Below the pieces are notes generated by a model, which saw only the letters and a list, made by a program, of their open reading frames with translations, was not told where the DNA came from and did not search any database. The translations under genes were made by a program, and so were the position numbers. DNA of 64,000 nt from Octopus vulgaris (Eukaryota), in the NCBI GenBank assembly GCA_951406725.2, contig OX597820.1, positions 73,842,001 through 73,906,000 of the forward strand. Reading direction: 5' to 3'. Of the stretch, positions 8,707-58,297 are shown piece after piece. Numbering within the stretch: the stretch's first letter is position 1; each line of letters begins with the position of its first letter.

Positions 8707-8779
8707 GCCTCCATAGCTCAGAGGTTAGAGCACTGGTCTTGTAAACCAGGGGTCGTGAGTTCAATTCTCACTGGGGGCT
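8707..8779 (+). tRNA. tRNA-Thr: tRNA-Thr(UGU), intronless
   Basis: Acceptor stem GCCTCCA/TGGGGGC, D-arm GCTC..GAGC, anticodon arm CTGGT-CTTGTAA-ACCAG, T-arm GTGAG-TTCAATT-CTCAC; 73 nt; very similar to metazoan tRNA-Thr-TGT. Confidence 0.95.
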
Positions 8780-8791
8780 TCATAAAAGATG

Positions 8792-8799
8792 TTTTTTTT
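8792..8799 (+). terminator. Pol III terminator (T8) of tRNA-Thr
   Basis: Run of 8 T about 12 nt after the tRNA 3' end. Confidence 0.7.
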
Positions 8800-9297
8800 A
8801 AGGCGGCGAGCTGGCAGAAACGTTAGCACACCGGGCGAAATGCTTTGCGGTATTTCGTCTGTCTTTATGTTCTGAGTTCAAATTCCGCCGAGGTCGACTA
8901 TGCCTTTCATCCTTTTGGGGTCGATAAATTAAGTACCAGTTACGCACTGGGGTCGATGTAATCGACTTAATCCGTTTGTCTGCCCTTGTTTGGCCTCTCT
9001 GTATTTAGCCCCTTGCGGGTAGTAAAGAAATAGGTATTTCGTCTGCCGCTACGTTCTGAATTCAAATTCCGCCGGGGTCGACGATGCCTTTCATCCTTTT
9101 GGGGTCGATAAATTAAGTACCAGTTATGCACTGGGGTCGATGTAATCGACTTAATCCGTTTATCTGTCCTTGTTTGTCTTCTCTGTGTTTAGCCCCTTGT
9201 AGGTAGTAAAGAAATAGGTATTTCATCTGTCTTTACGTTCTGAGTTCAAATTCCGCCGAGGTCGACTTTGCCTTTCATCCTTTCGGGGTCGATGAAT
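8800..9297 (+). mobile_element. SINE family B multimer (184-bp units)
   Basis: AAGGCGGCGAGCTGGCAGAAACGTTAGC head; junction AAAGAAATAGGTATTTC at 9024 and 9208; core GCCTTTCATCCTTTCGGGGTCGAT resembles the Meta/MESC-type SINE domain. Confidence 0.85.
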
Positions 9298-9402
9298 TAT
9301 GTACAAGTTGCAGTATGACGGTTGTGCTTTTGGCGGCGAAGAGGATTGCAGTGACTCCAGCAAGCGCTATAGGTTATACATCAGAGTCGCCTTCTTCGAG
9401 GT

Positions 9403-26600: not shown

Positions 26601-26984
26601 AGTATACGTACATATATTCATACACAGTTAAATATACAAACACATGTGCGTGTGTATGAATGTGCGTGTGTATGAATGTGCGCGTGCGTAATGTCTTATT
26701 CAAGAGGAGAAAGTAACGTTCGTAACCCTTCACAGAACGGGACCCCCTAGACTGCCAGGGAACAGGAGGAAGTTATCCTCAAACCAGAGACCAAGTCTGA
26801 ATGCTTGCAACTAAGTGGATATAACTAAAGATACCCGATGTATGTATCAGGCAATGACGATAAACTGGGCAACCGATGAAAAACTATGAAAAGCAAAAAT
26901 GGCAACTTCAGCGACAACGAGAAACTCCAGTTGGGCCATTTCTTATTAAAACCAAAATTAATCGTTTCGTGATGGAGGTGCTAA

Positions 26985-27178
26985 TCTCCCCCTTTGTAAA
27001 CATAAGGACACAGGAAATATGTCAAGGTCGATAGGAAGCGGTGCTTCCTAGTTCTAAATAGCAGTAGTATTATTCCCTTTCATGGGACTGTCACATTAAG
27101 TTGACAACACACCAATACTTTATAGTGTTACTACTGTATAAATCTCTCTGAGAGATTTAGAAATGTATTATTTCTATA
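26985..27178 (+). mobile_element. Old copy of the PLE-like end sequence seen at 58074-58285
   Basis: CTCCCCCTTTGTAAACATAAGGACACAGGAAATATGTCAA..GGGACTGTCACATTAAGTTGAC..TCTCTCTGAGAGATTTAGAAAT. Confidence 0.65.
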
Positions 27179-49907: not shown

Positions 49908-50296
49908 GAAACTCGTATAATGGAGAATAAATAATATTAAAAAATTTCTGATCTATTTTGATATTATTACTCCGCAGAAAATATTTTTCAGCATTTACAA
50001 CTCTTATGCATAACTCATACAAATATAACATTCACAGGTGCATTTGGAATACTGAAATAAAAAGATGTGCTTTAAGAGGATACAGCTTGGATTTTAAACC
50101 TAAATCAACATTAAAACAAAAATGGTTCCATAGAATCTGCGAAATCACTCAATATATAAGAGGTAACTATTAGAAAAATTGCTAGAATAATTGATAGGAG
50201 CAGACGATAATTAAAAGATTCTTCAGTCTAACCCAAAGATTAGAAAATCACTATTTTTCAATATCATAACGAGATATATTCAGCAATAGTACTTTG

Positions 50297-50635
50297 TAGT
50301 AAAGATTGTTTGCCAACATAACTTGGCAGTTCTGGTTTTGGACGAATGTTGCTGTAATTTAGCCCCAGGAGACATCGTCTCCAGTTGGCTATACGACACG
50401 ATCTGTGTCCTTATACGACACGATCTGTGTCCTTATACGACACGATCTGTGTCCTTATACGACACGATCTGTGTCCTTATACGACACGATCTGTGTCCTT
50501 ATACGACACGATCTGTGTCCTTATACGACACGATCTGTGTCCTTATACGACACGATCTGTGTTATGGGGCTAAATTACAGCAACATTCGTCCAAAACTTA
50601 GACTGCCATATTATGTTGGCAAGCAATCTTTACTA
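50297..50635. repeat. 71-bp inverted arms enclosing a 22-bp tandem array (7 perfect copies + 19-nt partial, 50390-50562)
   Basis: Unit TATACGACACGATCTGTGTCCT; arms 50297-50367 / 50565-50635. Confidence 0.9.
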
Positions 50636-56669: not shown

Positions 56670-56748
56670 AATATTAGGGAATAAATCCAAATTTACAGGG
56701 AAAAATCAGATTTAGGATTGAATCCAATTTTATAGTAAAATATTATAT

Positions 56749-57226
<478 letters not shown>

Positions 57227-57229
57227 TAT

Positions 57230-57790
57230 ATCTCAGAACTTGAGGCGATCCAACGAAGCTACACGAAGAAGATAGCCTCTATGCAGCATGTAAGCTATTG
57301 GGAAAGACTCAAGAAATTAAGCCTCTATTCCTTAGAGCGTAGGCGAGAAAGATATCCCATAATATACATCTGGAAGATCCTGGAAACTTGTCTCAAACTT
57401 TGGCATCGAGAGTTACACAAAAACTAGAACTGGGCGCCACTGCATAGTGCCAAGGACTCCAAATTTGCCATCAAGATGTAGGACAAGATACTGCAATAGC
57501 CTGGGCTTCAGAGGTCCACAGCTCTTCAATATCCCTCCGAAGGACCTGAGAAACCTGCATGGAGTGGATGTAGGTGTCTTCAAAATAAAGCTGGACCTCT
57601 TCCTGTCAGGTGTCCCAGATGAACCAACTTCGCGACAGGAGTTGCAGATGAAGGCAGCTGCATCAAACTCTCTCATGCACCAAATGTCAATTGCTAAAAA
57701 GCATTCGTGAAGTAAAATCATGTAGCAACACCAAATGGCGGTACCCCAGCATGGTCACAGCTCGTGAGCTGAAACTAGATGAAAAAATAT
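57230..57790 (+). mobile_element. CR1/L2-group LINE 3' end
   Basis: [55 protein letters not shown]; short 3'UTR. Confidence 0.85.
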
Positions 57791-57840
57791 ATATACACAC
57801 ACACACACACACACACGCACACACACACACACATATATAC

Positions 57841-58285
57841 ATATAGTGGTCGTATACCGTCAACTCAATGTGACAGTCCCGTAAGGGAATTACACCACCG
57901 CCATTTAGCCCTAGGAAACATCGACGTCTCCTGTCGGCTTTGACACATTTTCTGTGTCCTTATATTTGCAAAGGGGAGGCAATCACCCCCAGCGAGCGAG
58001 ACAAGCTACCCTGAACTGACGACGAGCAATAGACTCAGAAACATATGTTTTCAGGTGCTTAGTCCCAGCTGGCGGGGGTGATTGCCTCCCCTTTGCAAAT
58101 ATAAGGACACAGAAAATGTGTCAAAGCCGACAGGAGACGTCGATGTTTCCTAGGGCTAAATGGCGGTGATGTAATTCCCTTACGGGACTGTCACATTGAG
58201 TTGACGTTATACGACCACTATATCGCTCCACCACCGCTTATGTCTCTCTGAGAAATTTAGAAATTCAATATTTCTAATATATATA
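57841..58285. mobile_element. PLE-like end with 150-bp inverted arms (57841-57990 / 58074-58223)
   Basis: 2 mismatches between arms; 83-nt spacer; flanked by TA/CA microsatellite. Confidence 0.88.
58010..58055 (+). ncRNA. Minimal type I hammerhead in the palindrome loop
   Basis: CCTGAA-CTGACGA-cGAG-caataga-CTCa-GAAAC-ATAT-GTT-TTCAGG. Confidence 0.8.
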
Positions 58286-58297
58286 CATACACACACA

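Follow-up and report, generated by a model that had tools for sequence, protein, structure and literature searches.

A palindromic insertion from a 354-nt non-LTR retrozyme family with two fixed 3' ends in the Octopus vulgaris genome

Results

Architecture of the insert

The window, the whole 64,000-nucleotide stretch of Octopus vulgaris DNA analysed here, carries a palindromic insert made of two 5'-truncated copies of a 354-nt unit. Positions in this unit, the monomer, are counted from the ribozyme cleavage site. The inverted copy (57841..57990, minus strand) spans monomer 25-174, and its 3' end at 57841 coincides with start site A and has no tail. The forward copy (57991..58278, plus strand) runs through monomer 296-354 and then 1-229, less than one unit, with its 3' end at start site B. 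Within it, monomer 25-174 forms the right arm of the hairpin (58074..58223, plus strand), followed by a 55-nt "tail" from start site A to B (58224..58278, plus strand) that is present at the right end only and folds into two small hairpins. The two copies meet in a junction zone of about 30 nt (57961..57990, unstranded), where monomer 25-54 is naturally, if imperfectly, complementary to 267-295 and the letters are those of the inverted arm. One 11-bp target-site duplication surrounds the whole insert, with outer ends at sites A and B. Its left copy lies in a CA/TA microsatellite (57833..57843, plus strand), the last 3 nt falling within the arm, and its right copy at 58279..58289 (plus strand).

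The arms (57841-57990 and 58074-58223) measure 150 nt each, are 99% complementary and enclose an 83-nt spacer. Sequence and fold thus agree with the earlier note, which had described near-perfect 150-bp arms with two mismatches and a spacer of this length. It had placed the feature at 57841..58285; the hairpin lies there, but the right boundary is too far out, as 58278 is the last position of the insert and the target duplication takes up 58279-58289. For the complete insert the computed folding energy is -327 kcal/mol (z -31, 100 shuffles); the spacer by itself is no more stably folded than expected by chance (z -1.8).

The copy is young, as it bears only four private changes in about 440 nt and both arm mismatches are private changes of the right arm. 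Both arms carry a minor allele (15/95) at position 157. The exact junction was not found elsewhere at high identity among the scored loci and is single-copy; therefore the hairpin itself has not been amplified. The unit is the 354-nt monomer and not, as had been supposed, the hairpin. The insert or the 64-kb window holds no open reading frame combining a reverse transcriptase with GIY-YIG, and most family copies are below 500 nt. The proposal of a young, non-autonomous element resembling Penelope-like elements (PLEs) or retrozymes, inserted with an inverted end, holds up well: private changes are few, there is no ORF, the ends are of PLE type, and the left arm is an inverted 5'-truncated copy ending at site A.

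Several repeats adjoin the insert. A second, perfect 181-bp palindrome (56676-57112) belongs to a different family with 1432 candidates and is 82% like the upstream repeat of a PLE locus (L195). It has a hammerhead-like motif in each arm and a tail of about 75 nt at the left arm only. Many genomic copies of its family are head-to-head with nearly the same centre; this family may have a fixed 5' start or may have spread as a unit. Between the two palindromes lies a 3' fragment of a LINE-like reverse transcriptase element (57233-57780), and the retrozyme sits in its microsatellite tail. The window further contains LINE remnants and one tRNA match (8707-8779, 71.5 bits), directly before a dispersed repeat (8792-9311), which may be a tRNA gene or the head of a SINE. 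No host gene was recognised among the window's long ORFs.

The hammerhead motif of the window copy

A predicted canonical type I hammerhead occupies 58003..58060 (plus strand). It consists of a helix I bulge (58007-58009), helix I (58010-58015/58050-58055), the core (58016-58022), a C-A apposition at 58023/58037, GAAA at 58038-58041, and a palindromic helix III (58041-58048), with U17 at 58049, after which cleavage is predicted. All parts of a type I hammerhead listed in the earlier note (stem I, core, C-A, GAAA and palindromic stem III) are thereby present. Its GUU cleavage site is real in this copy, but is not a family feature: position 17 is C in 86 of the 89 motifs tabulated below, and only one other young copy shares the U. 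By comparison with these relatives, the window GUU is a post-insertion change from GUC (C17U). The 6-bp helix I, 4-position helix II and 2-bp helix III do not fit the minimal PLE hammerhead that had been suggested. A hammerhead model search gave no Rfam match at gathering score in the window and none at E<=10 locally, which we read as a limit of the models; the motif draws its support from conservation among relatives instead.

In the computed fold of the insert, the active hammerhead costs about 2 kcal/mol. The copy is nevertheless a predicted dead end, because it has one motif, less than one unit and the C17U change. The earlier idea of a double-stranded RNA hairpin opened by self-cleavage finds no support in the fold: we infer that a cut at 58049 would break the strand within the loop, with the 150-bp duplex still closed. 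Nothing points to a function of the hairpin, given the single-copy junction, the decayed cleavage site, a lone ribozyme that cannot release a monomer, and a loop nick that leaves the duplex in place. Read-through transcription could possibly yield double-stranded RNA. Four sequencing runs compared on one monomer (L016), as contigs only, with three guessed to be RNA and one of unknown kind, all showed high cover over monomer 30-229 and thin cover over the hammerhead. The window junction is not listed in the contigs of these runs; wrap-around joins occur in X1 and X16, as is also expected from tandem DNA.

A dispersed family with two fixed 3' ends

The genome searched comprises 2.8 Gb in 227 contigs. 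The spacer query returned 237 first-look candidates, of which 40 were scored (identity 92-100%), and two exact core patterns gave 41 and 31 matches, with none for reversed controls. The loci are not a random sample but those that best match the window. L046 and L047 (duplicates of L037), L041 (diverged) and L077 (a fragment) were dropped before locus and junction counts. Mapping of 65 distinct loci among 90 fetched defined a circularly permuted, non-coding unit of 354 nt with a G+C content of 44%. On these sequence features, the insert belongs to a dispersed family of non-LTR retrozyme type.

The 3' ends of the copies are confined almost entirely to two positions: among 88 segments, 41 end at site A (~174), 39 at site B (~229), 55 nt from A, and eight elsewhere. 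They mostly run into TA repeats or AT-rich DNA, and the 5' ends are scattered. The cleavage site is crossed by 84 of 105 segments, a proportion biased by the use of the ribozyme as most queries; 39 of the 105 exceed one unit, the longest reaching 741 nt, and none has its 5' end at monomer positions 1-24. Because segments cross the cleavage site, exceed the unit and do not start at 1-24, a cleaved linear monomer would not have been the template, and we infer a circle or an uncleaved multimer instead. The 72 exact core matches include two same-strand dimers (L062, L060), each with two complete hammerheads, and no arrays longer than about two units. Tandem units inside long young-family copies differ by 3-8%, which fits circle and dimer templates alike.

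An older subfamily, 70% identical to the young one, has 2514 candidates. One of its members is a separate 5'-truncated insertion in the window (26974..27178, plus strand) that ends at site B and is 94% identical to the older subfamily and 74% to the young one. An older copy of the arm had been noted at about 26985-27178; a related copy does exist there, but it has neither an inverted partner nor a hammerhead and stems from this different, older subfamily. A still older relative (50207..50415, minus strand) is about 60% identical, as are L141:18-675, L145:367-807, L078 and L093, some of them with G-C or G-U at the helix II base. These still older relatives suggest that there may have been several waves, with drift of the helix II basal pair. 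Retrozyme copies have also multiplied together with their flanks, in tandem (1.6-kb period) or by segmental duplication (L112, L117, L118 and L037, L046, L047).

Conservation of the ribozyme

The 89 tabulated motifs include one false match, two motifs that belong elsewhere (other families) and, binned with the old group, three young copies that lack 2 nt. The core CUGAYGA is found in 80. The helix II base (10.1-11.1) is C-A in 55, U-A in 25 and G-C in three, the G-C rows being the two other families and the false match. The C-A mismatch of the window is thus inherited, since C-A and U-A dominate this position across the family. Between the young and old subfamilies, four of the six helix I pairs are altered on both sides, and no change is seen in the core, the outer G-C pairs or the 3-nt bulge. 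The helix III palindrome measures 6, 8 and 10 nt in three subfamilies. A lack of core conservation or of stem covariation among copies would speak against a ribozyme; here the core is kept and helix I carries compensatory changes.

The family hammerhead has a CUGANGA/GAAA/UH core, closed helices II and III and an open helix I, as expected of type I. Its helix I of 6 bp, helix II of 4 bp, helix III of 1-2 bp, palindromic loop and covariation match the "canonical" metazoan form, as distinguished from the minimal PLE form in PMC4209133. Hallmarks of the minimal form, namely a short helix I of 4-5 bp with a poor loop 1, a helix II of 7-8 bp and an extra unpaired base, are not seen. The G10.1-C11.1 pair of the canonical type I hammerhead is missing from the family; according to PMC4209133 and PMC7229834 this pair is highly conserved, not invariant. 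With C-A or U-A in its place in 80 of 89 motifs, cleavage may be slow. We describe the family hammerhead as a predicted canonical metazoan type I motif with putative self-cleavage, retained although the sequences have diverged by 30% or more and the helix II base lacks its usual G-C pair. Its helix I bulge and loop 2 resemble the Schistosoma loop-loop motif. The ribozyme likely serves to release monomers, which are then circularised, from dimeric transcripts.

Folding of the consensus circle gives -134.7, compared with -85.7 +/- 5.4 for 60 shuffles (z -9), and the hammerhead caps a long imperfect stem. The old-subfamily consensus adopts a like architecture, with 61 pairs common to the young fold, seven of them changed on both sides. 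Among predicted pairs with changed letters between the two consensuses, only 21 of 50 still pair in a crude, sequence-only alignment.

End pairing at head-to-head junctions

Head-to-head structure occurs in 25 of 75 loci, with 26 junctions in total. Eighteen pair an A end with a B end, none is A/A or B/B, and eight have one non-canonical end. Counting the L017 duplicate once, all 17 independent junctions with two canonical ends, that of the window copy among them, are A/B (P ~3e-6 given the single-copy end frequencies of 30 A and 19 B). One locus (L026) was scored "other" owing to a small third piece and stands outside the 17; its end map shows B/A. Short inverted remnants occur in three of 50 single copies, each an A end with an inverted B, and in none of 300 control windows. 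Target duplications of 11-14 bp flank entire head-to-head inserts (L001, L011, L022, L030, L055, L090). The family thus shows features of PLE mobilisation: a tail between two 3' ends, an inverted 5' copy, an AT-rich target and a target duplication. At 111 of 127 polymorphic sites both arms have the same letter, where 83 would be expected; the arms therefore share a template subfamily, though they need not come from a single molecule.

At most of the other junctions, the positions brought together are unrelated, overlap by 0-6 nt and show no palindrome. The window join falls where monomer 25-54 pairs naturally with 267-295. A diverged subfamily copy (L041:1332-1743) is an independent hairpin joined in the same natural stem, with a 10-nt helix III palindrome. 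In the old subfamily (30 loci, B-ended query), seven partners end at A, one is B/B-like (L098) and four are irregular. The neighbouring family has mixed ends in 10 of 12 cases, one A/A and one B/B. At one locus (L017/L018, C6:39.90 Mb), the whole head-to-head insert is followed by an inverted duplicate of itself, and the two form a larger palindrome that contains two ribozymes. The strict A/B pairing is a useful mechanistic clue; our search, of largely open-access literature, found no paper that quantifies end pairing in head-to-head PLE or retrozyme inserts.

Penelope-like elements in the genome

PLE loci were obtained by a tblastn-type search with a PLE-like remnant. The genome holds PLE-like ORFs of 778-908 aa, with many copies of 899 aa. 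They gave no Pfam or PDB match, and the Atlas placed one of them with HTH_animal/GIY-YIG/RVT_1 clusters. Young PLE-like loci (L181-L191, e.g. L186:2506-5202) have tails of about 150 nt or more and type I hammerheads in their terminal repeats, with helix II very long; short motifs at their start sites resemble sites A and B. Among eight PLE terminal repeats, several contain a type I hammerhead, and the same helix III palindrome is present in two. No autonomous PLE with DNA similarity to the retrozyme family was found among 17 fetched PLE loci and 20 shorter ones of one PLE clade by low-stringency BLAST. A 26-nt match between the family and the PLE loci (E 0.04) was rejected as a link.

Discussion

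Origin of the insert

We consider it highly probable that the insert is a single recent insertion of the 354-nt non-LTR retrozyme, in which two 5'-truncated copies came to lie head to head, with a Penelope-like reverse transcriptase/endonuclease likely priming one cDNA per target strand at two internal start sites. The 354-nt unit, the two fixed 3' ends, the differing ends on the two arms, the target duplication and the join in the hammerhead-flanking stem are seen directly. The enzyme would nick both strands of the AT-rich microsatellite. A first cDNA would start at site A (174) and run to about 25, and a second would start at site B (229) and run back across an uncleaved or re-ligated cleavage site to about 296. 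The cDNA 3' ends would then anneal via the natural 30-nt complement, followed by fill-in. The hammerhead lies in the loop because it is already at the tip of the natural stem in the family fold, and the hairpin probably came about as a by-product of insertion rather than as a functioning RNA device. In PMC11167929, AT-rich DNA is nicked by a purified PLE protein that extends both of its strands without strand preference, PLE starts at two internal sites define the tail, and the protein is a predicted dimer. It uses uncleaved RNA, so that ribozyme cleavage is not needed. Inverted 5' copies of PLEs, often with a tail at one end only, are described in PMC8557442 and PMC3846280.

An RNA with a selected role, namely a long double strand controlled by the loop ribozyme and feeding small-RNA or editing pathways, seems very unlikely to us. 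Transcription that reads through the insert would give a highly stable hairpin (-327 kcal/mol) in which the active hammerhead fold comes at little cost (only ~2 kcal/mol), but the window junction is single-copy, one of the four private changes in ~440 nt lies at the cleavage site, a third of the family loci are head-to-head with arbitrary joins, and a loop nick leaves the duplex intact. Fold-back self-priming, by which one cDNA or antisense RNA folds on the natural stem and copies itself into the inverted arm, is improbable, if somewhat less so. The window and L041 junctions both lie within the natural stem, and self-priming has been proposed for PLE inverted junctions (PMC3846280). Such a molecule would, however, reach its own start at site B or stop randomly, whereas the arm ends precisely at site A, where it borders target DNA, in line with 17/17 junctions. 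Most other junctions, moreover, link unrelated positions, with an overlap of 0-6 nt and no palindrome.

That the palindrome goes back to two separate insertions, to an inversion that came later or to a chimera of the assembly appears remote in the extreme. Nested microsatellite insertion is common in the window, and long-read chimeras can be palindromic. Against this stand the single target duplication around the whole insert, the two outer ends at canonical start sites, and arms that differ at two sites yet both have the minor allele (15/95) at position 157.

For the two-strand, two-site insertion that we favour, a more specific form can be put forward tentatively, as plausible though somewhat short of probable. 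The strict pairing of a tailed with an untailed end, copies of more than one unit and the lack of long arrays would be the trace left in the genome when a PLE dimer begins to reverse-transcribe one 354-nt RNA circle from both sites simultaneously. If true, this would be direct evidence of animal retrozyme circles as PLE templates and would explain the PLE tail at one end only. Given the 17/17 mixed ends, this model of two coupled sites lends itself to a direct test with a 354-nt RNA.

Comparison with known systems

LINE-1 5' inversions arise by twin priming, in which two primers on opposite target strands yield an inverted 5' piece joined by microhomology. In contrast to LINE-1, both cDNAs here copy the same 150 nt, resulting in a palindrome, and both start at fixed internal sites.

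By the features tested, the family is classed as a non-LTR retrozyme: a non-coding unit within 150-450 nt, low G+C and one type I hammerhead per unit. Tandem organisation is found at the family level (dimers L062, L060), and the window copy, with one motif, is a sub-monomer derivative. In PMC7229834 and bioRxiv 10.64898/2026.07.22.740005, metazoan non-LTR retrozymes are alike in their non-coding unit of about 350 nt, a G+C content compatible with our 44%, and a canonical type I hammerhead, as well as in the weak palindromic helix III, dimers and many solo copies. The C-A or U-A at the helix II base differs from the retrozymes described there, with a mismatch precedent in the U-U of axolotl HHR_Amex2. 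Described retrozymes often form tandem arrays, whereas no long arrays were seen in the octopus family, and its two fixed 3' ends and frequent head-to-head insertions do not appear in the retrozyme descriptions available to us. Papers on retrozymes propose PLEs as the mobilising enzyme but lack insertion footprints; the bioRxiv article argues for a PLE origin from phylogeny and describes the mobilisation mechanism as still to be elucidated. On hammerheads in the host taxon, a search of largely open-access literature gave no paper beyond PMC8557442.

The family differs from endonuclease PLEs, as described in PMC8557442, PMC3846280 and PMC11167929, in having no ORF, a tail of 55 nt instead of 30-40, and a canonical instead of a minimal hammerhead; the PLE terminal repeats compared with it show no similarity at the DNA level. 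In common with these elements it has 5' truncation, an inverted 5'-truncated copy, a tail at one end only, two internal starts, AT-rich or microsatellite targets, target duplications of 11-14 bp and partial tandem units. The window locus is an ordinary member of its family; as a whole, the family is useful in that it links work on retrozymes with work on PLE insertion.
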